64,000 nucleotides of DNA from a virus (Duplodnaviria; Caudoviricetes), in IMG/VR virus record IMGVR_UViG_3300020463_000001, positions 1-64,000 of that record; one strand, 5' to 3'. The notes below the pieces were generated by a model that was not told the DNA's origin, made no database searches, and was given only the letters and a program-made list of their open reading frames with translations. How positions within the stretch are numbered: the stretch's first letter is position 1; each line of letters opens with the position of its first letter. Shown piece by piece: positions 1,001 to 36,523 of the stretch. A program made the position numbers and the translations under genes.

Positions 1001-3055
1001 TTAATCCGCGAAGAAGTAAACTTTACCAGCGGAGCTGCTTATACCGTTGTTATCTTCCTGTGCTCCAATAGCGATAGTGGTATCTGTTACTTCTATAGAA
1101 GACCCAAAACCCCCGCCCCACGCTGGATTCCACTCATTTGGTAGATACTGACTTGGGGTAGGGTTCTCTATTGTATTGACCAAGGTTCCGGATCTATCGT
1201 AAACATAAACGACACCTTTCCTTGGTTCGCCGTTCGCACCTTGAGACTTTTGCGTGGCTCCCACAAAGAAGAATTGTTGATCATTAGAAATTCCTACTGA
1301 CCATCCGAATCTCTCTCCGTATTCATATGGTGTAGGAGGCACCAGTCGGGTTACTAAGTTTCCGGTTGAAGTATCCCATACAACAGCAATCCCTACTTGA
1401 CCTACACCACCTTCTTCATAAGAAAATCCTCCACCTATTAGAGTGCTTCCTTTGACTTTAATACTGCCAGGATAGTATGCGAATTGTCCATAAGCAGTTG
1501 AAGTAACTCCAGCTACTGATGTAGGATCGTATGATCTAGTGTATGACGGTGATGTCTTGTCTGTGATATCATATTCCCAAATAATCCCTCTGAATGTATT
1601 ATAAGGCCCCTGACCTATAAACAAAGTATTGTTATCATCACTCAATGCTAGAGAACTTCCGAACTGTATGTCTCCATTCGGACAGTGAATTGCTGAAACT
1701 GGGACAGTAGTGGTATCGTGTATTGAAACCATCCCAGAACCTCCAGCAACGGGAACATCATTAGTCTGACCAGTATGTCCGATAATAAAATAGTTACCAT
1801 CAGAAGTCACTTCTACGCACTGTGCATATCTGTTATCGTTTGGATTGTTCCACCCAGCGATTTTACCATCACCCCAAGACCCATCTGATGCGTTGAATGT
1901 GAATACTGCACCGTCTCCACTATGACCTCCATTATCTAAAAATCTTGCGGCGACTGCGATTTTTCCTCCACCGACTGCAACATCCCATGCGAAAGAAATG
2001 CCACCTTGGTCTCCCCTTCCTGTCGCATTCATACCCATAGGATTATCTATTTCATATAAGAGAGTTCCGGAATGATCATATACATAGACTCTTCCTCTAT
2101 AGGAATATCCCCCCTGATAATGACCATATGCACCCACTACTATATAATTATCATCTGACGCCATACTATATCCGAACGCATGAGAATTACTTTCAGTGCT
2201 AGTACTCGTAACGGTTCCAGAATGTGTTGGACTTGACCAGTCTACCGCAAATGCTAATGTGAAACTTGAAACTGCAGTTGCGACATTCACTGAGTCATTT
2301 GCCGAAAATGTTAATTCGAATGTCGCAGGAAGAACTCCGTGTGGAGTAATTGTAAACACATTATCGTTTTGTGTGACTGTGGTTCCATTCAATGCTCCGT
2401 TGGTCACTGAATGTGAGAATGATACAGGATCATTCTCTGGATCCGTAGCGGTCAGTGTGATGACTGTAGGTGTCCCATCAGTCGCTAAAGTATATGCCGC
2501 ATCGTTTCCTGATACTGTTGGTGCAGTGTTAATTAATGCAACAGCGTACCATCCCTCTGCAGTTTTGATATATAATTTATTATTGGATTGAACAACTGCC
2601 TGATCCCCGGCACTTGCTCCAGCAGGCAAATCACCCACTGTTGCAACAACTTGTAGTGCGGCTGATGTCGGGGTAGTATAAGAAACTACACCATTATCAT
2701 ATGATAAGTCTCCGGTGACACTTATTGCCGGTTGAACACTATTTGCGTTTAGAAATTTTCTAGAACCCTCTACCATTTGATCTGTAGAAGTCATTCCTCC
2801 CAATGCTGGTCTTCTGTCTCTTAATTCATTAATTCCTTCAGAGAGTGATACTAGATCATCTATGGACGCTGCAGGAATTGCAGAGGCCATTTGAGTGTCC
2901 AGTTCTGTTTCTACTTCTGAATCATCTATAAGACCAACAAATCTAGCAGACTTAGCGAGTCTTCCTAGATCTCTTGGAGTTGTACTAATTGCTGCTCGGT
3001 TTCGAATCCGAGACTTCATATTAGTTTTAGCGTTTTCTAAATTAGTATTAGGCAT
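1001..3055 (-). CDS. Fibre/adhesin-like protein: shared N-terminal domain, Ig/cadherin-like domain, C-terminal FG-GAP-type beta-propeller
   Basis: Repeated FGxSxAxxxxxIVVGA ... G.VYVY motifs; APTVSG...VITLTATDPENDPV Ig-like segment. Confidence 0.7.
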   Translation of the reverse strand: MPNTNLENAKTNMKSRIRNRAAISTTPRDLGRLAKSARFVGLIDDSEVETELDTQMASAIPAASIDDLVSLSEGINELRDRRPALGGMTSTDQMVEGSRKFLNANSVQPAISVTGDLSYDNGVVSYTTPTSAALQVVATVGDLPAGASAGDQAVVQSNNKLYIKTAEGWYAVALINTAPTVSGNDAAYTLATDGTPTVITLTATDPENDPVSFSHSVTNGALNGTTVTQNDNVFTITPHGVLPATFELTFSANDSVNVATAVSSFTLAFAVDWSSPTHSGTVTSTSTESNSHAFGYSMASDDNYIVVGAYGHYQGGYSYRGRVYVYDHSGTLLYEIDNPMGMNATGRGDQGGISFAWDVAVGGGKIAVAARFLDNGGHSGDGAVFTFNASDGSWGDGKIAGWNNPNDNRYAQCVEVTSDGNYFIIGHTGQTNDVPVAGGSGMVSIHDTTTVPVSAIHCPNGDIQFGSSLALSDDNNTLFIGQGPYNTFRGIIWEYDITDKTSPSYTRSYDPTSVAGVTSTAYGQFAYYPGSIKVKGSTLIGGGFSYEEGGVGQVGIAVVWDTSTGNLVTRLVPPTPYEYGERFGWSVGISNDQQFFFVGATQKSQGANGEPRKGVVYVYDRSGTLVNTIENPTPSQYLPNEWNPAWGGGFGSSIEVTDTTIAIGAQEDNNGISSSAGKVYFFAD

Positions 3056-3076
3056 TATTGTTTCCTATTTGTATTA

Positions 3077-4426
3077 TTAACCACCAGCAAAAATTGGAAA
3101 TATTGAACTGTTATATCTCGCTGGCCCTCGGTAATCGGGCCCAGTGCCGTACAGTTCGAATTTGAATTTATTAATTCTTACGCCCGTATCTCCATATGCC
3201 CATTGAGGCATTAAATTAGTATTTAATGTATGACCAGCAGTGAAAAGACTTGGAGCTCCGTATTTGTAACCCTCGTAAGTCGGATAAAGTGTAATTACTT
3301 CCCATTGATTGGTATCTACATTAAAAACTGATGTCCGGTTAGTCCCTCCGTAGGGAGTACCTCCACCGCCGCCCGGAGTCCACTGCATACCAGTAACAAA
3401 TCCCAATAATGTCGCAGTTGTTCCCAAATTCACTATTACGCCAGAATTGACTCTAGGATTATATACCATATATCTAATTGCTTTGATGTGATTCTCTTTT
3501 TCGGAGTAGGTCAATGCCCCCCACTCATCAAAACTGGAAATTCCTTCTGCAGCAGTCCAATGATAGTAAGAACTGTATTGGCCGTATTCCAAGTAATGAC
3601 CAGAAAAATCTGGAGCAAAATTTAACGAAAAACTTGATGCACTCGTTGTCGCAACATTCACGGTGTCATCTGCAGAGAATGTTAAATCGAATGTCGCCGG
3701 ATTAGCATTGTGTGGTGTCACAGTGAACACATTGTCATTTTGTGTGACTGTGGTTCCATTAAGATCTCCACTAGATACTGAATGTGAGAATGTTACTGGA
3801 TCGTTCTCTGGATCCGTAGCAGTCAATGTAATAACTGTAGGAGTTTCATCAGTTGCAAGAGTGTATGATGCATCGTTTCCAGATACTGTTGGTGCGGTGT
3901 TAATCAGTGCGACTGCATACCAACCATCAGCGGTTCTAATATATAAGTTATTGTTCGCAGTAACGACTGCTTGTGTCCCTGCAGTTGCGTCTAGTGGTAA
4001 ATCTCCGACTGTTGCAACTACTTGAAGTGCCGCTGCAGTAGGAGCAGTGTATGAAACAACACCACTGTCATACGATAAATCACCAGCGACACTTATTTGT
4101 GGTTGTACATTCGCTGCTTTGAGAAACTTATTGCCACCTTCTGTCAAGTTATCTGTTGTTGCAACCTGACCCATATCTGCAGAACTACCTCTGAGTTCTT
4201 TAATTCCTTCTGACATCTCTACGAGATCATCTACAGTCGCGGCAGGAATCGCTGCGCTCATTTGAGTGTCGATATCTGTTTCTACTTCAGCATCATCTAA
4301 AAGACCAACGAACCTCGCAGACTTCGCAAGTCTACCTAGATCTCTTGGTGTTTGACCAGCTTGGACTCGGTTTCTAATACGAGTCTTCATGTTAGTCTTT
4401 GAGTTTTCTAAATTAGTATTAGGCAT
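3077..4426 (-). CDS. Fibre/adhesin-like paralog with beta-sandwich (discoidin/lectin-like) C-terminus
   Basis: First ~270 aa closely match 1001-3055; C-terminus closely matches 4445-5803. Confidence 0.7.
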   Translation of the reverse strand: MPNTNLENSKTNMKTRIRNRVQAGQTPRDLGRLAKSARFVGLLDDAEVETDIDTQMSAAIPAATVDDLVEMSEGIKELRGSSADMGQVATTDNLTEGGNKFLKAANVQPQISVAGDLSYDSGVVSYTAPTAAALQVVATVGDLPLDATAGTQAVVTANNNLYIRTADGWYAVALINTAPTVSGNDASYTLATDETPTVITLTATDPENDPVTFSHSVSSGDLNGTTVTQNDNVFTVTPHNANPATFDLTFSADDTVNVATTSASSFSLNFAPDFSGHYLEYGQYSSYYHWTAAEGISSFDEWGALTYSEKENHIKAIRYMVYNPRVNSGVIVNLGTTATLLGFVTGMQWTPGGGGGTPYGGTNRTSVFNVDTNQWEVITLYPTYEGYKYGAPSLFTAGHTLNTNLMPQWAYGDTGVRINKFKFELYGTGPDYRGPARYNSSIFPIFAGG

Positions 4427-4444
4427 TATTGTTTCCTATTTAAA

Positions 4445-5803
4445 TTATCCGAATATCGGGAATATTGCTCTTGGACATTGTGCATATGTGTTTGATGGAA
4501 TGGTCGAACTGCTGTGTTTTTCTCTCGCACGAATTCGTATTTTACTAATCCTTACTCCCGTCTCGCCGTATGCCCAAGCGGGATCATTATTTGTTGTACT
4601 ATGACCAGCAGTGAAAAGACTTGGTGCTCCATATTTTACATTGCTGACATTGCTATTTTTTGCAACAGTTTCCCACTGATTTGTATCTACATTAAAAACT
4701 TGTATCCAATCCAGCCCACCAAATGCATTAGAACCATTGTTTGCAGGACTAGTCCAGTTACTTAAAGTGACAAATCCCTTTAATGTGGCAACTGTTCCCA
4801 GATTTACATCTATTCCATTATTGGGCTGAGTACGGGGTTTAATTATCACTGCTCTAATTGCTTTACCAGAATTATTTTTATCTACTATTGCGTCATATTC
4901 ATCAAAACTGGAAACTCCTTCCGCATCATCCCAAAAATAGTAAGAACCGTTGATAGCACTTTCCGCAGAATGTCCAGAGAAATCTGGAGCAAAGCTGATC
5001 GTAAACTCTGAAGGAGTAGTTGTAGATACATTAGTTCCATCTGATGCACTAAATGTTATTGAAAATGGCGCGGTATCTGCCGGATCTGAACTTCCTGTAA
5101 TTGTGAAGACATTATCTGATTGTGCGACAGAAGAACCACCTAAAGCCCCTGCAGTTACTTGGTGACTATATGTGATAGGATCTCCTTGTGGATCAGTAGC
5201 GGACAATGTAATGACTGTCGCCTCGCCAGTTGATAATGCATAAGATCCATCTGGATTTGAATCAAAACTTGGTTTCTGATCAACCAGACCTACGCCAACC
5301 CACGATGCACCAGTAAAGACATAAAGTCTTTTGTTTTCTTCTACTATTCCCTTTGCGCCAGCAGCAACTCCACTTGATGGAAGATCTGCGACTGTTGCGT
5401 AAACCGTTAATGCATCCGGTAGTGCTGTGTAAGATAAGACTCCAGTTCCGGAATTATATGATAAGTCTCCAGATGCACTGAATGAACCTCTGACTCTATC
5501 CTGAGTGACATAAAGGTTACTAGAACCTTCTGCAACCATAGTAGATGTAGGAACGCCAGCACCTTCTGGTGTTCTGAGTTTCTTAACTCCGAATGCAAGT
5601 TTTTCTAAATCTTCTGGTTCTGCCGAGCCTGCAAGTGAAGATACTTTCGTATCTAATGCAGTCTCTAAGTCTGCATCATCGTCAAGATTTGCCTTTTCTA
5701 TTGATCTAGATAACTTGACAATTTTATCTGCAGTATTTGCTGCGTTAATCGCAGCAAGTAGTTTTGTTTTGAGTGTGTTTCTTGAACTGAATGTGTTGCC
5801 CAT
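4445..5803 (-). CDS. Fibre/adhesin-like paralog
   Basis: Same architecture; shares APDFSGH, FNVDTNQWE, KYGAPSLFTAGH and IFPIF with 3077-4426. Confidence 0.7.
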   Translation of the reverse strand: MGNTFSSRNTLKTKLLAAINAANTADKIVKLSRSIEKANLDDDADLETALDTKVSSLAGSAEPEDLEKLAFGVKKLRTPEGAGVPTSTMVAEGSSNLYVTQDRVRGSFSASGDLSYNSGTGVLSYTALPDALTVYATVADLPSSGVAAGAKGIVEENKRLYVFTGASWVGVGLVDQKPSFDSNPDGSYALSTGEATVITLSATDPQGDPITYSHQVTAGALGGSSVAQSDNVFTITGSSDPADTAPFSITFSASDGTNVSTTTPSEFTISFAPDFSGHSAESAINGSYYFWDDAEGVSSFDEYDAIVDKNNSGKAIRAVIIKPRTQPNNGIDVNLGTVATLKGFVTLSNWTSPANNGSNAFGGLDWIQVFNVDTNQWETVAKNSNVSNVKYGAPSLFTAGHSTTNNDPAWAYGETGVRISKIRIRAREKHSSSTIPSNTYAQCPRAIFPIFG

Positions 5804-5846: not shown

Positions 5847-5854
5847 TATTTATA
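5847..5854 (-). promoter_or_regulatory. T4-type late promoter TATAAATA for the fibre array
   Basis: Exact consensus about 45 nt upstream of the ATG at 5803. Confidence 0.75.
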
Positions 5855-5892: not shown

Positions 5893-6108
5893 ATGCAAAA
5901 AAAATCTAAGATAATTCGCATCTCAGAATTTAATGCAGAAAAACGGAAAGATAAAGAACTTATTTATTATAATGAACAATTATCCAAACTGAATTTACGA
6001 CTATCTATAATTATGTCAGAGATAAAACTGACCAAAGAAATCATTGATATGATAGAAAATGAAAAACTGATGGACTTTGCAAAGAGACTCAATCAAGATA
6101 CTGAATAG
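5893..6108 (+). CDS. Hypothetical coiled-coil protein
   Basis: AGGAG RBS; 71 aa; converges on the cyclase stop. Confidence 0.7.
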   Translation: MQKKSKIIRISEFNAEKRKDKELIYYNEQLSKLNLRLSIIMSEIKLTKEIIDMIENEKLMDFAKRLNQDTE

Positions 6109-7919
6109 ATTCTGATTGGTTCTTCTTTGCCTTTAACCTTTATTGTGCCTATAGATTTCTTATTGTAAGTATCTGGTAGTTGCGAAACTGTGTATTCAGA
6201 CACTATAGTTTTATAATCTATATAATCCCCCCGAGCGGCAGTGGACTCAAGCCGTGCGGCGAGGTTGACTGCATCTCCAATAACCGAATAGTCAAATCTG
6301 GATTCACTGCCCATGTTACCGACAATACAATCACCGGAGTTAATACCAGTACCAACACTAATGTCAGGCAAATTGCGCTCTTTGTAGATTCTTTTAAGTT
6401 CATTTACTTCTTTTTCTATTTCTATTGATGATTTGACTGCAAGTTCCGCATGGTTCTCACACGGCAATGGCGCATTCCAAAAGGCCATTATACAGTCTCC
6501 CATATATTTATCTATCGTTCCACCGTTGTCTAGGATAATGTTGGACATTTTATTTAGAAATTCGTTGACCAACTCCACTAATCCTTCGGGGTCATCATTG
6601 TTTTTATAATGTTCAGATATGGGCGTAAATCCACATATATCCATAAAGAGGAAAGTCATCTCCTTTCTCTCCCCTCCCAGTTTAAGCAACTCTGGATTCT
6701 TCTGTAAAAGTGCAACTTGTCTTGGGTCAAGGTATGTCTCAAATTGTTTCTTAATTTGTTGACGCAACTTAAACTGACGATAGAATTCAATAAACGCAGT
6801 ATGACCAAATATTAGTATTCCTCCTAAGAGTATCATCACTGGACTGAATAACATATAGTGGGCATTGAATAGATACCCAGAACCTATTACGGATCCAGTA
6901 GACAATAAAAGGAACACCATACCACTCAACCACATAGGAGTTTTACGCAATAGAAGGACAAATAAACCTCCCAATAGAACCATTGTAAGCAGTTCTAAGA
7001 ACGCGAAATAGTCTGGTCTAGTAATGACAGTGTTCTTTACAATCGTCTCTATGAGGTTCGCTTGTACCTCATGAGGGAACATTCCACCCACTGGAGTACT
7101 AATAATATTAGAACCAGCGAATGTCGGCCCTATAATAACAATACTACCTTCTGGTATCCATAGATTTCCCAGATCCGATATAGATGCCCTCTGAAACTTA
7201 TTCCAGTAGGAGTTATACACCGCACCGTTGTCTGATGTGGTGATGGGTTTATAGGCAGGAATTCTCACCCATTCTATTCCTGTTTCCGTTGTCTTTATCT
7301 GGAAAGAAATATCTCCCACTGCTACTCTTATAGTTTCTAATGCAAATGATGGAAATATCTCTCCATGAGCTCCGACAATGATTGGAACCTCTCTCACTAC
7401 ACCATCAATAGATGGTTCTGCAGTTAACGCACCAAATCCATTAATGAATTGTGCAAGTTCCGGAATAGGGGTAAGAATCCCTTTGTAATCTTTAACGAAA
7501 TCTATTGCATCTCTGGGGCCTAGTGTAGTTGTCCCGATATGCATTTGTGGTTCGAATTCATAATCATCAATAACCTGTGTCGCAACGACTATCGGTTTCC
7601 TTACAAATGCCTCTGCGAGGAATATATCAGAGTTTCCTCTTCCTCGTTCTGAGAGAAGTACATTGAGTGCGATGAGAGTATTGTCTGGTAGTTTGTTGAT
7701 TTCTTTTGCAAGGACATCACGATCCCATGGCCATCTACCATTCTTCTTTATAGATTTCTCATCTATGTCTAATAGAATAATTTGTTCTGACTTATTCTCT
7801 TCATGGTTTCTCTGGAGTAAGTCAAAGTAGTTTAGTTGTGTTGCTTCTAAGATGTATGGATTGAGAACTTTAACCAGTATACATAATAAAAAAGTAATTC
7901 CAATATGGTATAATTTCAT
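6093..7919 (-). CDS. CHASE2-domain membrane class III adenylate cyclase
   Basis: N-terminal TM; CHASE2 motifs (LLDIDEKSI..GRWPWDR, DGVVREVP, P.GG...HEVQAN); 3 TMs; catalytic FMDICGFT, IDKYMGD, GINSG..IVGNMGS, DYSVIGDAVNLAARLE. Confidence 0.93.
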   Translation of the reverse strand: MKLYHIGITFLLCILVKVLNPYILEATQLNYFDLLQRNHEENKSEQIILLDIDEKSIKKNGRWPWDRDVLAKEINKLPDNTLIALNVLLSERGRGNSDIFLAEAFVRKPIVVATQVIDDYEFEPQMHIGTTTLGPRDAIDFVKDYKGILTPIPELAQFINGFGALTAEPSIDGVVREVPIIVGAHGEIFPSFALETIRVAVGDISFQIKTTETGIEWVRIPAYKPITTSDNGAVYNSYWNKFQRASISDLGNLWIPEGSIVIIGPTFAGSNIISTPVGGMFPHEVQANLIETIVKNTVITRPDYFAFLELLTMVLLGGLFVLLLRKTPMWLSGMVFLLLSTGSVIGSGYLFNAHYMLFSPVMILLGGILIFGHTAFIEFYRQFKLRQQIKKQFETYLDPRQVALLQKNPELLKLGGERKEMTFLFMDICGFTPISEHYKNNDDPEGLVELVNEFLNKMSNIILDNGGTIDKYMGDCIMAFWNAPLPCENHAELAVKSSIEIEKEVNELKRIYKERNLPDISVGTGINSGDCIVGNMGSESRFDYSVIGDAVNLAARLESTAARGDYIDYKTIVSEYTVSQLPDTYNKKSIGTIKVKGKEEPIRIYSVS

Positions 7920-8647
7920 TGCTGTGTTACGCTAATACTACATCCTGCTGCATTTTGACATAACTGAGAGATCGTATATGATTGTGCAGTTGTGCCTTGT
8001 TGTGATAAAGAGAAGTTAGTACCATAAGTACCGTCCAGTGTTACATTCGCAGTATGCGATGCATTTCCTAATTGATCAATACTCGCGGTATTATCTGAGT
8101 TATATACTGTCAAATTGAGAGTCTTGTTACTGTCATCTTTTTGAGATGTCCATATGTCGTTTCCACTACCAGCCATATGGAGATGATATGTATGAGAACC
8201 GCTGCCATTACTCTCTTGATAACCTACGACATCGTTATTATTGCCGTATATCTCATATCTCGCGGTATGCCCTCCACTTCCAACACCATCATATGTAAAT
8301 GAAGTATCATTTTTATCAGTCAGAGACGCTCCTTGTCCGTGTCTTAGTGTGTTGCTGCTTCCTGTTATCTCATTAATATTTATAGTGTTCTGTGAACCCA
8401 CATTTTGTTGATGGAAATGTACATTCCAGTTAGCTCCAGTAAAGTATGAAGATCCTGAGAACATCTTGATTTCATTATTTGAACCAATCTGATCCACATC
8501 AAATGTAAGATTAGTTCCACTCTGAGTAATATCTATTTTATTATCCCCATATGATTTTAATGTGATACACATGAGAAATGAGAATATCAGTAGAGTTCCT
8601 AGAATAGTACCTATACGATCTTTAGTAATCTTGTAATGGAATGCCAT
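7916..8647 (-). CDS. Curlin-like repeat secreted protein
   Basis: Signal peptide then DNKIDITQSG / DQIGSNN / DQLGN repeats (QxGxxN); G/S/N/T-rich; C-terminal Cx5C. Confidence 0.7.
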   Translation of the reverse strand: MAFHYKITKDRIGTILGTLLIFSFLMCITLKSYGDNKIDITQSGTNLTFDVDQIGSNNEIKMFSGSSYFTGANWNVHFHQQNVGSQNTININEITGSSNTLRHGQGASLTDKNDTSFTYDGVGSGGHTARYEIYGNNNDVVGYQESNGSGSHTYHLHMAGSGNDIWTSQKDDSNKTLNLTVYNSDNTASIDQLGNASHTANVTLDGTYGTNFSLSQQGTTAQSYTISQLCQNAAGCSISVTQQ

Positions 8648-9750
8648 TATCCCCCCTGTTGACGAATGGTGATACTGTTTCCGCCATCCCCAAGTTTTAT
8701 AATAGAAGGTCTTTCGTCTGTATAGGTATATATATCAAAATTAGCATCTGATTCAAATTTCAAACTAATGACACCAGTAACTTGACGATAAAACCATACA
8801 GTCCCTGCTGCTTTATCTATGATAGTATTATACTGCGTTTGTGGGTCATAACCTAACATTGTTCCCTCTATGTTTACCCTACCAGTTTTCTTCTTAAGAC
8901 TTAGGGGATCTCGTATATCCAGCACCAACAATAAGTCTTGTAAGAAGTCTACATTGAGAAGATCTATGTCTAGTTCGCTGTATTCGTCCAGAGTTTCGCC
9001 TATGTCCTTGAAGTAGTCTCTTTCCAACTCATTAAACTCTAGGAAGTCTACATCAAGTATATTAGAATCAGAACTATCAGATTGTTCTTCATCTATAGCT
9101 TGTTCTATTTCATCTGGAGGTGATACGATAAACATATTGTCTATCTGGGAGACTGTGATATTTTCTACTTTTACTGGTTGTACGGGCGGACTGGATATAG
9201 TAGACACTGATGTTGCTTCAAATGCCTCGTCTAGGACTACGGTTCCTGCCTCGTTAGTGACTGTTATTTCACCTGAGGCTGCTCCAGTTGCGTCTGGTAG
9301 TAGAATAATAAGAGATCGTCCTAGTTCATCGATAGTAGTAGTGAAGTCAGTTCCCCTGATACCGATAGTGGCAACCGGAGTATTGATTCGTATATTGGAC
9401 TTATTCATCAACGCAAGTTTACCAGAGGCAAACCTCGCGGTTCCCTGTGCAAAGTTGAGAACCATTTTAGACTTGTCTGGATTGGGGTCATAGATGACAG
9501 AATCTATGACCACTTCACTATGTTCTGTAAGACGCAAATTTGACTCATCGAGGAAGGTGATAGCCATACGCCCATTATTAGTCACGGCAACATCATTCAA
9601 CAGAATATCCAGACCGGAAGATACCGATAAGTCAGAGGCAGATCTACTTATAGATGTTTCGCCTGTAAATTCTGTTATGTCGCCAATAGTGAATCCAAAA
9701 CAACAAAGAATACCGCTAGTCGCCAGTATCTTTTTGAACAATCGTAACAT
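8647..9750 (-). CDS. FecR-domain secreted/periplasmic protein
   Basis: T..GRMAITFLDES.LRLTEHSEVVID ... G.ARF.SG ... TPVATIGIRGTDF FecR signature. Confidence 0.85.
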   Translation of the reverse strand: MLRLFKKILATSGILCCFGFTIGDITEFTGETSISRSASDLSVSSGLDILLNDVAVTNNGRMAITFLDESNLRLTEHSEVVIDSVIYDPNPDKSKMVLNFAQGTARFASGKLALMNKSNIRINTPVATIGIRGTDFTTTIDELGRSLIILLPDATGAASGEITVTNEAGTVVLDEAFEATSVSTISSPPVQPVKVENITVSQIDNMFIVSPPDEIEQAIDEEQSDSSDSNILDVDFLEFNELERDYFKDIGETLDEYSELDIDLLNVDFLQDLLLVLDIRDPLSLKKKTGRVNIEGTMLGYDPQTQYNTIIDKAAGTVWFYRQVTGVISLKFESDANFDIYTYTDERPSIIKLGDGGNSITIRQQGG

Positions 9751-10456
9751 TTGCGCTATTTGAGTTCAGTTGTAGATCAATGTAACCCTTACATGATGCG
9801 ATTCCACTACAGGTTCCAGAAGACTGAGTAAAACTACCAGTTCCTCCAGTTCCCGTCCAGTTAACCTTCATGTAATGACCAGTAGAATCTGATTGGACTG
9901 ATGTGAAATCGTTATTTCCGCCAATAACATCCCAATCCCATGTGGCGTTAGCTGAGTTTATATCTACATCAAAATCATTATCATCACCACCAGTGATGTC
10001 TAAATCGAAATTTAGGTTATTTGCTGCTGATGATCCTGCTATATCTAAGTCCATGTCACTATTACTTGATGTAATATCGACATCCATATCCATATCATCC
10101 GCATCGTTGCTGCCTGCTCCGATATTCCAGTCCCAAGTGTTGGTGTTACCTGTCCACTTAAGGTCTATCGTAGACGTATCTAGGATAATTGGCCCGAATA
10201 AGTCGTTGTTGTTACCAACTTGGTCTATATTCATCGTCAATGTGGTAGCGGTAATCAACATATCTGTTGCGACTACTCCACTAGACAATGTACCCCCGAC
10301 TTTGTTTCCGTAACCAAACTGGTCAAACGTAGCAATAAATGTATTACCTGATTGTTGTATCCAGATTTCGTTATCTGTCGCTGCTGCGCCGAACACACTC
10401 GACGGCAATAATATAGCCATAACAAAAAATAACATTTTGTTAAATTTATTAAGCAT
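9716..10456 (-). CDS. Curlin-like repeat secreted protein
   Basis: Signal peptide then DNEIWIQQSG, DQFGYGN, DQVGNNN repeats; D/N/S/T-rich beta-solenoid pattern; C-terminal Cx5C. Confidence 0.7.
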   Translation of the reverse strand: MLNKFNKMLFFVMAILLPSSVFGAAATDNEIWIQQSGNTFIATFDQFGYGNKVGGTLSSGVVATDMLITATTLTMNIDQVGNNNDLFGPIILDTSTIDLKWTGNTNTWDWNIGAGSNDADDMDMDVDITSSNSDMDLDIAGSSAANNLNFDLDITGGDDNDFDVDINSANATWDWDVIGGNNDFTSVQSDSTGHYMKVNWTGTGGTGSFTQSSGTCSGIASCKGYIDLQLNSNSANVTIVQKDTGD

Positions 10457-11354
10457 TGCTTTCTTCCTCTCTGTCGTATTCAGAAGATGGAGTTCTGCCC
10501 TCTATCTTCCAAAATCCCCTGTCGTTACCTTGATATATCATCTCTAAGACTGCTGCTTCTATTGCGGTTCTTGTCGCATAGGTAACACTCTCATTTTCTG
10601 ATACACCATCTTCCAACTCTACCAGTTTGGTGTCCATGTCTATAAATTTGAACACATCAACGCCTCCACCTACTGATAGTATAGTCTTTCGACTTTGTAC
10701 GTTCAACAATACCTCTCCTGTGAGTGTGCTAACTGCCCTTAGACTTATCACTACAGAGTCTCTCCTGTATTGTCTCGTAAATCCTATTCCTAAGTATCTT
10801 GCTCCCTTACCCCCAGTTTCTATGTTGGTATCGTAGCCTATAATACCTCCTTCTATTATCATTCCAGCAAATAGTAATGGTTGTATATTTGCCTTCGGAC
10901 TATCTTCTGACTGATGTTTCTTTCTTGTAGAGAGTATTATCTGTCTTTCTCTCACCAGATGATCTATACCATTTCTCTCTACAACCCGAAACCATCTACC
11001 TTTCCCTGCAGTCTTGAGCGCATCTATTAACATCTCTGTTGCGCCCTGAGTAACCGCTGTCGAGAAAGATGCGACATTATCCTGTCTCTTTCTTTGCCCT
11101 GTCTTGTCTGCGAAGTTATATACTGCGACAATAGGCATTTTCTCTGCTGGAGGCAAGTTCAGAAGCTTCTGATAACTAGGAAGTTTAACAACTTCCGGTT
11201 CCTCCACGCACTCCAGAAAATCCATCTTTCGCCATTCCCCTTCCTGATTCTTGAAGGGGGCCAACTTACACCCCAATCCCTCTTTGGTAAAAAGAGGAAG
11301 ACTAGAACATCCCATCAGAAGAATGGACATTATGAGCAATGCCGCTATCTTCAT
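10449..11354 (-). CDS. csgG: Curli secretion channel CsgG (lipoprotein)
   Basis: Lipobox LLMGC; VAVYNFADKTGQRK, FSTAVTQGA, WFRVVER.G, ERQII, LLFAGMIIEGGIIGYDTN, GGKGARYLGIG. Confidence 0.93.
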   Translation of the reverse strand: MKIAALLIMSILLMGCSSLPLFTKEGLGCKLAPFKNQEGEWRKMDFLECVEEPEVVKLPSYQKLLNLPPAEKMPIVAVYNFADKTGQRKRQDNVASFSTAVTQGATEMLIDALKTAGKGRWFRVVERNGIDHLVRERQIILSTRKKHQSEDSPKANIQPLLFAGMIIEGGIIGYDTNIETGGKGARYLGIGFTRQYRRDSVVISLRAVSTLTGEVLLNVQSRKTILSVGGGVDVFKFIDMDTKLVELEDGVSENESVTYATRTAIEAAVLEMIYQGNDRGFWKIEGRTPSSEYDREEESNA

Positions 11355-11839
11355 TAGAAACCTCCGGTGCCTATAGGTATTTCTATAACAGTTTCTGTCC
11401 CATCATCGTCTACAATTGTCATTCTAATGACTTCGCTTCCATCCTCACTAGTAACCACTTCGTAAGTGACCATATTACCTTCTAGTGCGAATGATCCAAA
11501 CCTAGCACCTTCTTCGTTGTTAAACATATTATCCACTAATTGTTTGGATAATTGTGCGTAGATTCTACTCTCCAAGTTCCTTATAAACTTAGCGAGGGTA
11601 GTATTGTCTGCTTCTCTCTCAGCTGACCTTTGGGCCGACTCTAGAGATTCTTCTATATCTTGTTTTCTACTAAACTGTTGGTTCTCTATCGTAAGATAGT
11701 GTGAACCAGTTCCTCTCCCAGAGAACGATGGAGACTTAAATTGATGTACAATTTCGTCTCCGTGTACTTCCACAGAAATAGGCATTGTCAGAAATCCGAC
11801 AATTAAAACTAATACTACCTTGGATATTGCAGTATCCAT
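11354..11839 (-). CDS. csgF: Curli assembly protein CsgF
   Basis: Signal peptide then EIVHQFKSPSFSG, AENQ-like IENQ, LESRIYAQLSKQL; directly upstream of csgG. Confidence 0.85.
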   Translation of the reverse strand: MDTAISKVVLVLIVGFLTMPISVEVHGDEIVHQFKSPSFSGRGTGSHYLTIENQQFSRKQDIEESLESAQRSAEREADNTTLAKFIRNLESRIYAQLSKQLVDNMFNNEEGARFGSFALEGNMVTYEVVTSEDGSEVIRMTIVDDDGTETVIEIPIGTGGF

Positions 11840-11864
11840 ACCAAACTCCTCTCTCCCCTAAAAA

Positions 11865-12167
11865 TTATTCAGTATCTTTTTCTAATAATTCTAAGGCTCT
11901 TTTTTCTTTTTGATCTCTGATTATCGCTTCTTTCTCACGATACTCTAAGACTACATTTACCTTTTGTTGTAATCGAATAAGGTCTTGATCCATCATTCTA
12001 GTTTGATCAATAACCCTAATCAATGCCTTATGCATTGTTCCTAGTGAGACGTTTATCTTATTATTGATAAACCACCACACATAGTAAACAAAATAACCCA
12101 TTCCTACTGCCATGATTATGGGAAACCCAAAATCAGATACAGCAGTAGACAACATCTTCATATCCAT
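11865..12167 (-). CDS. Small membrane protein (TM plus coiled coil; YvrJ/BhlA-like)
   Basis: DFGFPII.A.GMGYF TM then heptad helix; paralog of 12342-12638. Confidence 0.65.
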   Translation of the reverse strand: MDMKMLSTAVSDFGFPIIMAVGMGYFVYYVWWFINNKINVSLGTMHKALIRVIDQTRMMDQDLIRLQQKVNVVLEYREKEAIIRDQKEKRALELLEKDTE

Positions 12168-12178
12168 AAATCTATCCG

Positions 12179-12319
12179 TTATCTAAATCTTCTATCACCA
12201 CCACTAATCATCAACCTCTTTGTTGCACATTTAGAACAAAGTGTTTTATTCCATATAAAGGCCATTTCTAAGACAGTTCCCTTGAACTTACAATCGTGAC
12301 ATTTAAGTAAATCGCTCAC
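12179..12319 (-). CDS. 46-aa zinc-ribbon protein (MSDLLKCHDCKF...LCSKCATK...)
   Basis: Hand-found; GTG start with AGGAGG RBS; CxxC...CxxC. Confidence 0.7.
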   Translation of the reverse strand: MSDLLKCHDCKFKGTVLEMAFIWNKTLCSKCATKRLMISGGDRRFR

Positions 12320-12341
12320 GACTCTTACCTCCTAAAAAATG

Positions 12342-12638
12342 TTAATCTCTCCTTACGTCGAGTTTCTCATCCTCTATGAAATTTTCTGCCCTAGCAACTC
12401 TGTCTATGTCTGGTTTTAATTCTAGTGCGCTACTTACTAATAAATCAATCTTCAATATTTCATTACTCATCACTCTCGCTCTATTCTCAAGCGATTCCGC
12501 AAAACTAGTCAGAGTTCCCAAAGTAGAAATAATTCCGTCCATCAATTGTTTCAGTACTAACATGATAAAGACACCCATCACCAGAGCCCCGGCGATAGGT
12601 ATACCCACATCTTTTGCAAATATTAAAAATGCTTCCAT
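12342..12638 (-). CDS. Small membrane protein (TM plus coiled coil)
   Basis: DVGIPIA.A.VMGVF; paralog of 11865-12167. Confidence 0.65.
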   Translation of the reverse strand: MEAFLIFAKDVGIPIAGALVMGVFIMLVLKQLMDGIISTLGTLTSFAESLENRARVMSNEILKIDLLVSSALELKPDIDRVARAENFIEDEKLDVRRD

Positions 12639-12666
12639 TATGTCTCTTCCATTACATACGTCACAC

Positions 12667-12674
12667 TATTTATA
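12667..12674 (-). promoter_or_regulatory. T4 late promoter TATAAATA for the curli-cyclase operon
   Basis: Exact consensus 28 nt upstream of the ATG at 12638. Confidence 0.75.
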
Positions 12675-15473: not shown

Positions 15474-16100
15474 ATGAAAATCTCAACAAAACTTGTTGTG
15501 CTATTTGGATTGTTATTCGGTTCAGTATCCGCCAACGCAGTGGAAATGTCCACAACAATCGGACTTGGGTCTGATTACTTCTGGAGAGGCGTATCCCAAA
15601 ACTCAGGTAACCCAGCATTAAGTGGTGGCACAGAAATCTCTCAAGGAGGATTCTATGTCGGCGTGTGGGGTAGTCAAGTTGATTTTGGTGACGATGCGTC
15701 ATATGAATACGATCTATACGGCGGATATGGAGTTTCTTTAACAGAAGAAATATCTGTAGGCGTAGGAATGGTTCGATATATGTATGACCATAGTTACGAT
15801 GCGGCTGAGGAAGTTTTTGTAACTGGCTCGTACAGATCACTTGATGTTGAATATTACAGAAATCGTGATCGTTCACTGTCGGATTTGGACTACTTTTCAG
15901 TAAGTACAGTCTTGCCTGGCATTTCTGTGGTAGATGTATCAGTACAATATGGACAATTTGGAGATGGCACAGACCATAAAGGAGTTACATTATCTAAGTC
16001 TTTGACTGATAAGGTTGATGTATCTCTCTTGGTAAGATCTACAGTTAGATCTGACCAATTCTGGGATGACGCCGCAGTGAGTATCTCGTATACTTTCTAA
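15474..16100 (+). CDS. TorF/TIGR02001 (gcw_chp)-family putative outer-membrane porin
   Basis: Signal peptide; SDYFWRGVSQ, PALSGG, GFYVGVWGS.VDF, EYDLYGGY; C-terminal YTF. Confidence 0.85.
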   Translation: MKISTKLVVLFGLLFGSVSANAVEMSTTIGLGSDYFWRGVSQNSGNPALSGGTEISQGGFYVGVWGSQVDFGDDASYEYDLYGGYGVSLTEEISVGVGMVRYMYDHSYDAAEEVFVTGSYRSLDVEYYRNRDRSLSDLDYFSVSTVLPGISVVDVSVQYGQFGDGTDHKGVTLSKSLTDKVDVSLLVRSTVRSDQFWDDAAVSISYTF

Positions 16101-18907: not shown

Positions 18908-19240
18908 ATGGAAACTATATCTCGACCAGAGATACAAGAATCTGATATCGTTGCCTGTATGAAAATGGTTTACGATCCTGAGATTCCTGTCAACATTTAT
19001 GATCTTGGTCTTATATACGAAATAAACATATTCCAAGTAGCATCAGCGGTACATATAGTAATGACTCTGACTAGTGCTGGTTGTCCGGTTGCAGGAGAAA
19101 TGCCAGAATGGGTTAAGAGTGCAGCATTAATGGCTCATGGAGTGGAAAAGGTAGACGTAGAATTAGTATTCGATCCGCCTTGGGATCTTACCATGATGTC
19201 AGATGAAGCAAAATTAGAACTAAACGTATACGGTTATTAA
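18908..19240 (+). CDS. sufT: SufT/PaaD (DUF59) Fe-S cluster maturation protein
   Basis: VYDPEIPVNIYDLGLIYEI, MTLTSAGCPVAG, VELVFDPPW...MSDEAKLEL. Confidence 0.9.
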   Translation: METISRPEIQESDIVACMKMVYDPEIPVNIYDLGLIYEINIFQVASAVHIVMTLTSAGCPVAGEMPEWVKSAALMAHGVEKVDVELVFDPPWDLTMMSDEAKLELNVYGY

Positions 19241-19959
19241 TGAAAGTAAGTTTATACAGATACAATCCAGACATAGACGAAGTTCCGTATATGGAAGATT
19301 TTGAGTTTGCTCGCCCAGAGAAAGATATATTTGTACTTGATCTTTTGCATACGTTAAAGGAACGTGACTCTACTATAACCTATAGAAGAAGTTGCAGGGA
19401 AGGTGTGTGCGGTTCTGATGGTCTAAACATGAATGGCAAGAACGGACTTGCCTGTATAACTCCTCTGTCACAAGTAGTAAAGCGGAATAAACTGGTATTA
19501 AGACCATTGCCGGGCTTACCTGTTATCCGTGATCTTGTGATAGACATGACACAATTTTACGAGCAATATGAAAAAGTTACACCCTACCTCATCAACAAAG
19601 AACCGCCTCCAGAGAAGGAGAGATTACAATCACCAGAAGATAGAGAAAAGCTGGACGGACTCTATGAGTGTATATTGTGCGCTTGTTGTTCTACAAGCTG
19701 TCCTTCTTTTTGGTGGAATCCAGATAAATTCATCGGCCCAGCAGGATTACTCGCAAGTTATCGATTCCTCGCTGACACTAGAGATACAGCGACAGATCAA
19801 AGATTAGACGCACTAGATGATCCATTTAGTGTATTTCGATGTAGAGGTATTATGAATTGTGTCAGTGTCTGTCCTAAAGGACTTAATCCAACCAGAGCAA
19901 TCGGAAAGATTCGTTCTATGTTAATATCTAGGCCAAAACGAAAAACAGTAAATGAATAA
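19240..19959 (+). CDS. sdhB: Succinate dehydrogenase iron-sulfur subunit
   Basis: RRSCREGVCGSDG, PLPGLPVIRDLVIDM, ECILCACCSTSCPSFWWN, FRCRGIMNCVSVCPKGLNP; proteobacterial (gamma-like) type. Confidence 0.97.
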   Translation: MKVSLYRYNPDIDEVPYMEDFEFARPEKDIFVLDLLHTLKERDSTITYRRSCREGVCGSDGLNMNGKNGLACITPLSQVVKRNKLVLRPLPGLPVIRDLVIDMTQFYEQYEKVTPYLINKEPPPEKERLQSPEDREKLDGLYECILCACCSTSCPSFWWNPDKFIGPAGLLASYRFLADTRDTATDQRLDALDDPFSVFRCRGIMNCVSVCPKGLNPTRAIGKIRSMLISRPKRKTVNE

Positions 19960-20765: not shown

Positions 20766-21419
20766 ATGAAAAATGAACTGAAGTATCGTACAGTTGACGG
20801 AGAACCGGAATTGGTTAATAAACCGGCCGGAGTAGATTCATTAATGAATGGTTTACTTTCTCCTTTTAAGGAAATTGCACCAACAATAACCAACTCTTGG
20901 TGGTCTCGGTCGAGCGGAATGACGAAATATAGTTGGAATAGTATTACATCAATACAGGGACGGATCGTTGAAAAATTTTTCAACGATCTCCTACAAGAAG
21001 CCGGCGTCTGTCTGAAATATAAACTCAAGGACAAAAAACACGGCGGTTCCATTAGAATTAAGAATGGCGAGGTGAAACAAGTTGATATCTTGTTCAAGTC
21101 TAAACGAGGTAAAGTAATTTATCATGAATGCAAACTCAATCTTGATCTTGACTCTGGGAAGAGAAAAAAGTCTAACGAAACAATTATGGCAATAACAGAG
21201 GAATTGAAACCTGATCTTAGTGGTTATTTTGTGCCACTCACCCGAGCTGAAATTCAAAAAGCCGGATGGTTCAATAGTTATAAGAAGCAAGGAATTGTTG
21301 TTTATCCTATAGAATGGTTGATAGATCAATTCGATTGCCCATTCACTCTAAACGATTGGTGTGATTTTTGGAAGACTGATGAAGCTACGGAACTCTCCAA
21401 ATCTTGGGGATATCGTTGA
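20766..21419 (+). CDS. Putative type II restriction endonuclease (PD-(D/E)xK)
   Basis: E...VDILF...ECK pattern; overlaps the MTase gene. Confidence 0.55.
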   Translation: MKNELKYRTVDGEPELVNKPAGVDSLMNGLLSPFKEIAPTITNSWWSRSSGMTKYSWNSITSIQGRIVEKFFNDLLQEAGVCLKYKLKDKKHGGSIRIKNGEVKQVDILFKSKRGKVIYHECKLNLDLDSGKRKKSNETIMAITEELKPDLSGYFVPLTRAEIQKAGWFNSYKKQGIVVYPIEWLIDQFDCPFTLNDWCDFWKTDEATELSKSWGYR

Positions 21420-22237
21420 AACCAGTAGTTAAGTATCAGGGCGGAAAGGGAAGGGAATTACTCAGTATCAAGAAAAGAATGCCTTCTATTTTTGATGGTT
21501 TCAATATAGATAGAGTTGTTGAACCGTTTTGCGGTGGCGCAGCGTTATCTTTTGATCAAGAAAGACCAGCAATTTTGAATGATGTCAATCATCAAGTCAT
21601 TAACTTATATAAAGTGATTGCAGATAGACAACAGTATTCTCAACTGAAATCTCAAATAGATCAATATAAAGAGTATGATCATGATAAGTTGTCGGATTTA
21701 TTTTATCGATCCAGAGATATTATCAATCAACAAAAGACAGAAAACGGTTGTCTAGAAAAGGCAATCGCATATATTATAGTAAGACAACTCTGTTTTTCTG
21801 GAATGGAAAGATATAATTCTCTGGGCGAATTCAATGTTCCGTTTGGTCATTATAAAAAACTAACGTGCAATTTGTCTGACGGGCATCATAAATTCCTACA
21901 AAGATGTGATATAAGAGAGGGATCTTTTGTTGATGTATTTGAAGAATTAGCAGAAGAAGATTTTGTGTTCATCGATCCGCCTTATCTTGATCGACTTGGC
22001 TACATAACTGGTGATGGTGGCGACAGGCTGCATGAAGATTTGTTGGAGTGTTGTAAGAATACTAAATCAAATTGGATGATTGTTCATTCGGATCATGAGT
22101 TTTATCGAGACTCATACAAAGATTTTAATATAATTTGCGAAGATTTCTCGTATAGTCAAATATTTGGGAAAAATAGAGATCATTCTAATGCCAAAGTCAA
22201 GCATCTCTACATAACTAATTATTCTGTAACAATTTGA
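21404..22237 (+). CDS. N6-adenine DNA methyltransferase (Dam/D12 class)
   Basis: KYQGGK, EPFCGGAA (motif I), ILND.N, YNSLGEFNVPFG, FIDPPY (motif IV). Confidence 0.92.
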   Translation: MGISLKPVVKYQGGKGRELLSIKKRMPSIFDGFNIDRVVEPFCGGAALSFDQERPAILNDVNHQVINLYKVIADRQQYSQLKSQIDQYKEYDHDKLSDLFYRSRDIINQQKTENGCLEKAIAYIIVRQLCFSGMERYNSLGEFNVPFGHYKKLTCNLSDGHHKFLQRCDIREGSFVDVFEELAEEDFVFIDPPYLDRLGYITGDGGDRLHEDLLECCKNTKSNWMIVHSDHEFYRDSYKDFNIICEDFSYSQIFGKNRDHSNAKVKHLYITNYSVTI

Positions 22238-35168: not shown

Positions 35169-35406
35169 ATTTAATTTAGAACAAGACATACAACAATGCT
35201 GGTTTATTACAGAAGATATTGATTTGCTCATGGAGTATATTCTTGAAAATCCGAAGTATCCTATGTCTCCCCAAGTAGAAGATTACGTCGCGAATAAGTT
35301 GCTGGGAATCCGAGAGTTGTATGAAATGAGATTTGAAAGATTGTGGGATACATTCCTGCAGTGTTATAAACTAACTCCCTACGGAGAGGATGTTAATGAT
35401 AATTGA
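35104..35406 (+). CDS. Hypothetical protein (DRFNLEQDIQQCW...D)
   Basis: ORF track; start uncertain. Confidence 0.6.
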   Translation: MSYILRDGEIRTKKTSSPKKDRFNLEQDIQQCWFITEDIDLLMEYILENPKYPMSPQVEDYVANKLLGIRELYEMRFERLWDTFLQCYKLTPYGEDVNDN

Positions 35407-36523
35407 TGAGACGTTGAAGTATGACTTCGATGATGTTTTGATTAGGCCTAAAAGGTCTGCCCTTAAGTCCAGAGAAGATGTAGATCTTTTTAGACTTCAC
35501 ACATTTAGGAACTATGAGGTTCCCTCACAATACGCTCCTAACTATCCAGAGTTTCTTAAGATAGAAGATTTTCCTTGTTGTCTAGGTCGAGAACCAAATC
35601 AAGAATTCCAGTATAAGGGAGTTCCGATAATGGCTGCGAATATGGATGGAGTTGGAACTATGAAGATGGCATCGACTCTATCTCATTCTGGAATATTTAC
35701 TTGTCTCAAGAAAAATTATAGTGCAGAAGAATTAATAAATTTCTTTAATGAAGAAACTCACCTAACGGAATGTGTCGCAGTAACCATTGGAATGACTCTA
35801 GAAGATAAAGAGAAGTTGGAACGAGTATATTCTGAAACAAAAATAAAGTATGTCTGTATTGATGTAGCAAATGGATATACGGAAAGTTTCTGTGACTATG
35901 TAGAAGATATTCGAAATACGTTTCCACACTTAGTTATCATCGCAGGCAATGTTGCAACTGCAGACCAAACTGGAGAACTGATTCTCAGAGGAGCGGATAT
36001 CGTCAAGGTCGGTATTGGGCCAGGATCTGTATGTACAACTAGAATTAAAACTGGAGTCGGGTATCCCCAGCTCTCCGCAATAATAGAATGTGCGGATGCC
36101 GCACATGGTTTGGGTGGCCATATTATTGCAGATGGTGGATGCCGCACTCCAGCAGATATTGCAAAGGCATTTTGCGCTGGTGCAGATTTTGTTATGGTCG
36201 GAGGAATGTTATCTGGTCATAAACAAGGTTTAGAAGATGACGCAGAAATAACTGATGGTAATATCACATTCTACGGAATGAGCTCCAAGACTGCAAATGA
36301 AACTCACAACGGCGGTCTCAAAGACTATCGTAGCGCAGAAGGAAGAGAAGTATTGATAAAGTATAGGGGAAATGTAGAACCTACCTTACATGACATTCTG
36401 GGGGGTCTGAGATCTACCTGTAGTTATATCGGAGCAAAGACACTCAAGGATATGTCCAAGTGCTGCACGTTCATCCGTACTACTCGACAATATAATACGG
36501 TGTATGAGCAAAACACCATATAA
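35390..36523 (+). CDS. guaC: GMP reductase
   Basis: YDFDDVLIRPKRS, PIMAANMDGVG, CIDVANGY, GIGPGSVCTTR, DGGC, FYGMSS, GGLRSTCSY.GA. Confidence 0.95.
   Translation: MLMIIDETLKYDFDDVLIRPKRSALKSREDVDLFRLHTFRNYEVPSQYAPNYPEFLKIEDFPCCLGREPNQEFQYKGVPIMAANMDGVGTMKMASTLSHSGIFTCLKKNYSAEELINFFNEETHLTECVAVTIGMTLEDKEKLERVYSETKIKYVCIDVANGYTESFCDYVEDIRNTFPHLVIIAGNVATADQTGELILRGADIVKVGIGPGSVCTTRIKTGVGYPQLSAIIECADAAHGLGGHIIADGGCRTPADIAKAFCAGADFVMVGGMLSGHKQGLEDDAEITDGNITFYGMSSKTANETHNGGLKDYRSAEGREVLIKYRGNVEPTLHDILGGLRSTCSYIGAKTLKDMSKCCTFIRTTRQYNTVYEQNTI

Follow-up and report, generated by a model that had tools for sequence, protein, structure and literature searches.

Two studies of phage-borne genes of the curli, or type VIII, secretion system (T8SS) describe CsgF and CsgG with unnamed neighbors only, and neither names a cyclase, a FecR protein or a CHASE2 domain (Zaragoza-Solas et al. 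2020, PMC7029224; Buchholz et al. 2022, PMC9004378). The full module, a T8SS 'partner-AMG' module, was reported in HTVC023P-type podophages and in re-examined myophages, in the order one or two genes labeled 'HK', CsgF, CsgG, CsgA/B, FecR, a second CsgA/B and an adenylate cyclase (AC) (Wittmers et al. 2022, mSystems, PMC9599517). In that work FecR and AC were considered foreign to bacterial curli operons, an alphaproteobacterial origin and transfer between viral families were inferred, and metatranscriptome expression was reported; neither CHASE2 nor membrane topology is mentioned. Here, we analyzed such a module in a 64,000-nt stretch of viral DNA (positions 1 to 64,000 of IMG/VR record IMGVR_UViG_3300020463_000001, hereafter the window), where nine minus-strand open reading frames (ORFs) run from position 12638 to 6093.

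The window is part of a complete 200,733-base virus record with terminal repeats, which encodes T4-type parts (a gp5 OB domain, a gp5 trimerisation domain and a tail-tube cap) and has nucleotide-level matches, among isolated phages, to Pelagibacter phage HTVC008M only. The source is an uncultured T4-like marine myophage. The module is almost certainly the T8SS (curli), FecR and adenylate cyclase cassette already known from pelagiphages. The genes exist as described and are strongly conserved, but SAR11 phages have been on record with them since 2022, and the finding is of low novelty. The explanation that we favor, with slightly more confidence than doubt, is that this known module combines fibre export with a secretion-coupled sensor producing cyclic AMP (cAMP). 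To the published picture the present analysis adds that (i) the cyclase is a CHASE2 receptor with invariant catalytic residues, and the proteins labeled 'HK' are not kinases; (ii) the FecR protein has the periplasmic signalling fold only, in a phage with neither a sigma partner for it nor a cyclic nucleotide (cNMP)-binding protein; and (iii) the nearest bacterial cyclases adjoin type I secretion systems (T1SS) and giant FecR-bearing repeat proteins, not curli genes.

Gene order and conservation of the module

Coordinates and domain searches confirm nine minus-strand ORFs in the order given by an earlier reading of the letters alone (the original prediction), and Pfam and family searches support the identities it proposed for csgF, csgG, the two curlin-like genes (curA and curB), FecR and the CHASE2 cyclase (Table 1). 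From csgF onward every junction overlaps by 1 to 35 nt, as first noted (1 nt for csgF/csgG, then 8, 35, 1 and 4 nt down to the cyclase), so that fecR, which sits between the two curlin genes, overlaps both. The three upstream ORFs are followed by gaps of 22, 11 and 25 nt.

Table 1. Positions and properties of the promoter-like motif and the nine ORFs of the module (window coordinates)
Feature	Position	Strand	Properties
Late-promoter-like motif TATAAATA	12667..12674	-	T4-type; 28 nt upstream of the first ATG; read directly
tmA	12342..12638	-	98 aa; one N-terminal transmembrane segment, helical tail; phrog_18771 (4e-19)
CxxC...CxxC ORF (Zn-ribbon-like)	12179..12319	-	46 aa; doubtful or lineage-specific
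tmB	11865..12167	-	100 aa; tmA paralogue; phrog_18771 (4e-24)
csgF	11354..11839	-	PF10614 (2e-12); signal peptide; plug motif FKSPSFSG
csgG	10449..11354	-	PF03783 (6e-53); lipobox LMGC
curA	9716..10456	-	Conserved curlin-repeat family; signal peptide, Cys loop, C-terminal phi-x-phi-x-Q strand
FecR-domain exported protein	8647..9750	-	PF04773 (1e-9)
curB	7916..8647	-	Variable curlin-repeat protein; signal peptide, Cx5C; Curlin_rpt 21.5 bits
Receptor adenylate cyclase	6093..7919	-	PF05226 (2e-34) and PF00211 (7e-20)

A scan of IMG/VR showed a CsgG relative on 367 contigs, from which we fetched and compared 80 loci. Wherever the contig held enough downstream DNA, curA (71 of 71 loci), FecR (60 of 60), curB (47 of 47) and the cyclase (32 of 32) were present. 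Among the loci with a cyclase, all 47 keep the genes collinear and on a single strand. This arrangement is far beyond chance. Median identity to the window proteins ranged from 64% (CsgG, CsgF and tmA) down to 35% (curB). HTVC008M and Methylophilales phage Melnitz carry the module genes in the same order, and the GenBank record of Melnitz annotates all six genes, including curlin repeat, FecR domain, curlin repeat and adenylate/guanylate cyclase. The expectation that FecR and the cyclase would be syntenic with csgFG in related genomes, which the original prediction had offered as its own check, was therefore upheld in viral contigs and in both isolates. Its assumption that the signalling arm had not been described for phage curli loci was wrong, because FecR and AC are part of the pelagiphage T8SS cluster (PMC9599517) and of the Melnitz annotation.

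The window copy is like the published modules (PMC9599517; HTVC008M; Melnitz) in genes and order, in lacking CsgE, CsgC and CsgD, and in its alphaproteobacterial affinity; its CsgG and cyclase are 47% and 45% identical to those of HTVC008M. It differs in belonging to a larger, 200.7-kb uncultured myophage, in a possible extra 46-aa ORF, and in a direct overlap of curB with the cyclase, where many relatives have Fe-S or Mom inserts. Of 37 relatives, 23 have unrelated genes that separate curB from the cyclase. Those scanned are IscU/NifU_N, IscA-type (Fe-S carrier) and Mom-like genes (for example, L017:11375-12134, L039:11598-12582, L080:7399-8219 and L061:6737-7159), and as such they were rejected as candidate cNMP readers. 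The curB-cyclase overlap of the window is thus not general, whereas the gene order is. The proposal that the genes are translationally coupled stands insofar as the overlaps are real here, but it does not extend to this junction in most relatives. Similarly, the view of the module as one unit keeps its conserved collinear linkage and is softened by the Fe-S and Mom-like genes that precede the cyclase in those 23 loci.

Secretion channel, curlin-like subunits and receptor cyclase

CsgG has the features of an outer-membrane lipoprotein channel of the T8SS: the Pfam domain, matches to E. coli CsgG structures (4uv3, 2.4e-48 over residues 57-288) and a lipobox, which 50 of 58 family members share. 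When aligned with the E. coli protein, the constriction retains F56, and Y51 and N55 are replaced by Q and S, respectively. CsgF would insert its N-terminal segment into the CsgG barrel, as its Pfam match and a plug motif (F-x-[SN]-P-x-F-x-G) kept in 53 of 55 family members suggest; a phmmer search of PDB sequences found no match to solved CsgF chains. No Pfam match to CsgE, CsgC or CsgH was found among the nine operon ORFs, and the absence of a csgE homolog noted at the outset agrees with PMC9599517. Signal peptide-like N-termini are present on CsgF, curA, FecR and curB.

The two curlin-like families are homologous to each other (hhalign probability 99.3%, E 1.5e-20). For curB the Curlin_rpt score lies just above the cut-off (20.7 bits), and its family contains the repeat in 14 of 23 members (best 3e-9); the Cx5C motif is kept in 41 of 41 members, although curB is only 28-48% identical to its relatives. 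The curA protein of the window has no Pfam match of its own, and Curlin_rpt is found in 15 of 26 members of its family. AlphaFold models curA as an all-beta solenoid (pLDDT 81, pTM 0.76). These features identify curA and curB as curlin-repeat secreted subunits of CsgA/CsgB type, either of which could be the nucleator or the major subunit. A C-terminal phi-x-phi-x-Q strand is present in all members of the curA (54/54), curB (41/41) and FecR (48/48) families and is absent from the other five.

On a different explanation, CsgG and CsgF form a bare outer-membrane pore, which serves either for uptake or, as a gated secretin or pinholin, for the timing of lysis, and the other genes are accessory or unrelated (PMC9004378; PMC7029224). 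A late-promoter motif upstream of the operon, the missing CsgE gate and the partly altered CsgG constriction are all compatible with such a pore. The papers that argued for it assumed, however, that curlin subunits were absent, whereas two homologous curlin-repeat genes with signal peptides are found in every locus, and the conserved CsgF plug motif would be needless for a bare pore. We therefore regard this explanation as unlikely.

Fibre export with a coupled sensor, the explanation we prefer, depends as well on the nature of the cyclase. The protein consists of one transmembrane (TM) segment, a CHASE2 domain, three TM segments and a class III (IIIb-like) catalytic domain. The CHASE2 match spans residues 10-318, and hydrophobic segments were found at residues 1-19 and in the region 303-379, where we located the third segment (about 326-348) by eye. 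This is the architecture of CHASE2 receptors (one TM segment, an extracytoplasmic CHASE2 domain, three TM segments and a cytoplasmic output domain), and CHASE2 is accordingly predicted to face the periplasm and the catalytic domain the cytoplasm.

The closest solved relative of the catalytic domain is Pseudomonas aeruginosa CyaB (3r5g, 8e-35). Residues D427, D475, K471, S545, N552 and R556 were invariant in 19 phage sequences. Five of them align with CyaB as the residues that define class III, namely the two metal-binding Asp (D427 and D475), the Lys that specifies adenine (K471) and the Asn and Arg of the transition state (N552 and R556); Ser545 occupies the position at which CyaB and class IIIb enzymes have Thr. 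The sequence fits a competent adenylate cyclase of IIIb type with an intact catalytic center. The likeness to CyaB and class IIIb enzymes is confined to the catalytic domain, since the phage sensor is CHASE2 and not the CyaB sensor module. In the 200.7-kb genome, this cyclase is the only match to Guanylate_cyc. Elsewhere in the phage, a 446-aa protein (49380-50720) weakly matches the SMODS nucleotidyltransferase family, below the Pfam cut-off (E 3e-4); the match may be due to chance, or the protein could be a second enzyme of nucleotide signalling.

The cyclase, with or without FecR, might instead be an independent host-manipulating gene in a conserved slot, whose cAMP reprograms metabolism regardless of the curli proteins. 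Such independence would account for the unrelated cargo between curB and the cyclase in many relatives, for the occasional absence of AC and the second curlin from podophage modules (PMC9599517), and for bacterial relatives of the cyclase that occur without curli genes (see below). It accords poorly with a cyclase that is present and collinear in all 32 myophage-type loci with enough DNA, with a FecR gene embedded between the two curlin genes that it overlaps, and with CHASE2 and FecR parts that are extracytoplasmic, like those of the T8SS. We consider an independent cyclase improbable, and return to a sensor coupled to curlin export.

FecR-domain protein, cellular relatives and proposed working

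The model of the FecR-domain protein (pLDDT 72) comprises a confident N-terminal beta domain, a linker (residues 207-289) and a small C-terminal beta domain that ends in I-T-I-R-Q. Residues 50-205 match the C-terminal cell-surface signalling domain (CCSSD) of PupR (6ovk_R; Z 15.8, rmsd 2.3, 134 residues), and 4m0n is matched as well (Z 14.1); together with the PF04773 match, this gives the periplasmic FecR/CCSSD fold. The linker is acidic and modeled with low confidence, and it contains conserved Leu/Asp motifs. The fold starts about 20 residues past the signal peptide-like N-terminus. Neither a cytoplasmic N-terminal anti-sigma domain followed by a TM segment nor a cognate extracytoplasmic function (ECF) sigma factor was found, and the whole phage genome has no match to a Sigma70_r2-type sigma factor. 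The protein is not a Fec-type regulator, because the anti-sigma domain is missing and the phage encodes no Sigma70_r2 protein. Compared with FecR/PupR anti-sigma regulators, it shares the periplasmic beta fold and lacks the other parts, including a TonB-dependent transducer, of which none was seen in the operon. That FecR is an iron-responsive anti-sigma regulator tying the module to iron or siderophore uptake through CsgG, one suggestion discussed in PMC9599517 and in keeping with the Pfam FecR domain and the Fe-S assembly genes inserted nearby in relatives, is very improbable given a signal peptide-like segment that leads straight into the periplasmic fold, and given the missing sigma factor and transducer.

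For the cellular context we examined 78 bacterial loci, mostly from Alphaproteobacteria, that encode the nearest cyclase relatives (31-35% identity over the full length). No csgG, csgF or curlin homologue was found within 9 kb of the cyclase in any of the 78, and CsgG was wholly absent from five genomes of this set. About 22 of the 78 hold a FecR-domain ORF, often of 1000-2500 aa; 32-33 hold HlyD-like genes, and 19 hold genes that are FecR-RTX-like. In a marine locus (L132; 5025-19937), a C39-ABC exporter, an HlyD that itself has an N-terminal cNMP-binding domain, the CHASE2 cyclase and a small cNMP-binding protein are followed by DUF1538, a second HlyD and ABC, and a FecR and RTX protein. In Afipia birgiae (L121; 1282-12952), a 1427-aa protein with FecR and cadherin repeats, an ABC exporter, HlyD, the CHASE2 cyclase, an MBL-fold hydrolase and a cNMP-binding protein are encoded one after another on one strand. 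We found no paper describing a link between a CHASE2 cyclase and a type I secretion cluster.

These alphaproteobacterial clusters (L121 and the marine SAG/MAG loci L120, L130 and L132) resemble the phage module in receptor architecture, in a FecR protein that adjoins or lies near the cyclase, and in linkage to outer-membrane export of repeat proteins. They differ in that export is by a T1SS (ABC and HlyD), whereas the phage has a T8SS; in that FecR forms the N-terminus of an RTX or cadherin-repeat protein of 880 to more than 1400 aa; and in that they encode cNMP-binding proteins, whereas the phage encodes none.

A close CsgG (43-49% identity) was found in 7 of 401 sampled Alphaproteobacteria. 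All seven loci have csgF-csgG, and curlin-like genes lie nearby in five. As in alphaproteobacterial curli loci of the type of Dueholm et al. 2012 (as cited in PMC7029224), the phage module shows the csgF-csgG order, adjacent curlin-like genes and no csgE. It differs from the seven sampled loci in its FecR gene and cyclase, neither of which occurs within 10 kb in any of them. The linkage is thus not standard in the bacterial curli loci sampled; the opposite outcome had been named in advance as one that would lower novelty.

These data suggest that (i) the T8SS half and the FecR-cyclase half of the module lie apart in the sampled cells, in agreement with PMC9599517; (ii) the FecR and CHASE2-cyclase pair resembles a portable sensor that is fitted to a secretion system; and (iii) the phage lineage appears, by analogy with the bacterial clusters, to have coupled this sensor to a T8SS in place of a T1SS. 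The relay from FecR to a CHASE2 cyclase had been called established at the outset. This was too strong, because PMC5192318 shows the two genes to be adjacent, and because in another study a FecR-domain protein is a target of cAMP/Clr and is not needed for signal perception (PMC5498481).

Late in infection, the CsgG-CsgF channel would be installed in the host and would export the two curlin-repeat proteins to the surface. The periplasmic FecR-domain protein would partner the CHASE2 domain, and the cyclase would convert the state of secretion, fibre or envelope into cAMP. The original prediction had put forward contact, superinfecting phage or fibre state as candidate stimuli. The bacterial T1SS clusters with the same sensor pair support a secretion-coupled sensor by analogy. 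We advance this mechanism tentatively, with doubt somewhat outweighing confidence.

Several observations weigh against it. Fibres, secretion and cAMP are predicted functions of the phage copies, and contact between FecR and CHASE2 is suggested by gene neighborhood only. Cells infected with Melnitz showed no clumping (Buchholz et al., PMC9004378). No cNMP-binding domain was found in the phage genome, and any reader of cAMP must therefore be host-derived. In the 23 of 37 relatives where unrelated genes follow curB, the module is interrupted ahead of the cyclase, so that coupled translation is not a conserved feature. A Foldseek comparison of the curA model with PDB and reviewed AlphaFold models gave no significant match and no CsgA or CsgB, with weak generic beta-helix matches only, yet we do not take this as evidence against a curlin fold. 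Finally, the RNA-library contigs described below cannot exclude DNA carry-over, nor do they show strand or start sites.

A more specific arrangement, which we put forward as speculation and think quite unlikely as a whole, is that the FecR-domain protein spans the outer membrane as a tether, in the manner of the retention module found in T1SS adhesins. Its N-terminal FecR domain may be kept in the periplasm, touching CHASE2, while the conserved acidic linker of about 80 residues may thread the CsgG channel, and the C-terminal domain, with the same phi-x-phi-x-Q strand as both curlins, may dock on the fibre. If so, the cyclase would directly read fibre load or secretion state, and phages would have moved a bacterial FecR and CHASE2-cyclase sensor from a T1SS and giant adhesin to a T8SS and curlins. 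FecR showed no homology to curA or curB in profile-profile comparison (probability about 3%), and the curlin-like end of FecR is therefore a short shared motif only. The FecR-domain protein might also substitute for the missing CsgE. A match of model residues 19-116 to 5ix9, a 'cell surface anchoring domain' (Z 7.1), was not used, since it may reflect a common arrangement.

SAR11 and OM43 are among the most abundant marine cells, and to our knowledge they encode no curli parts. A widespread module for fibre export with a receptor cyclase could alter aggregation, superinfection, lysis timing and host physiology at ocean scale, a case that has already been made in print. The cellular relatives, in which the same sensor pair accompanies another secretion system, supply a concrete and testable model of mechanism.

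Upstream genes, promoter motif and neighboring genes

The two small membrane proteins upstream of csgF, tmA and tmB, are 27% identical (BLASTP E 7e-8) and both belong to phrog_18771, of unknown function; they are paralogues. The TM segment of tmA covers residues 11-29. By position, the two are presumably the genes called 'HK' in PMC9599517. That label, for histidine kinases, finds no support in the window proteins, and we rejected it. Neither of these proteins of 98-100 aa has a Pfam domain at E<=10, hence no HisKA or HATPase_c kinase domain, and 42 of 46 members of the tmA family contain no histidine at all. They are not histidine kinases because a kinase domain is missing and most tmA relatives lack the residue.

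The gene first read as a Zn-ribbon exists as an ORF, but it is doubtful or lineage-specific, because tblastn matches were confined to two near-identical contigs (L002 and L003) and because a metatranscriptome contig (run X15) that matches both flanks carries 143 different letters in place of 12186-12329.

The motif TATAAATA occurs 12 times in the window, against 5.4 expected, and in 51 of 77 related loci a copy is found no more than 100 nt upstream of the tmA homologue. It is a putative T4-type late promoter, and the operon is probably transcribed late. Past the cyclase, no clear end of the operon emerged from a terminator scan. In four marine RNA libraries, contigs are 90-99% identical to parts of tmB, csgF, csgG, curA, the start of fecR, curB and the cyclase.

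Downstream of the cyclase, the window holds three adjoining large minus-strand genes (1001-5803). Two encode proteins of about 450 aa that are about 33% identical over part of their length, the trio includes a 684-aa protein with FG-GAP and cadherin-like domains, and none of the three has a PHROG match. They are probably variable fibre or adhesin genes. A further copy of TATAAATA lies beside them, at 5847-5854.

Other genes of the phage encode a Gcw_chp protein (an outer-membrane beta-barrel family; 15474-16100), an SdhB-like 2Fe-2S/4Fe-4S protein (19240-19959), a D12-class adenine methyltransferase (21404-22237), an enzyme of the IMPDH/GMP-reductase family (35390-36523; PF00478, 3e-68) and a cytochrome P450 domain protein (57301-58695; PF00067, 2e-20).

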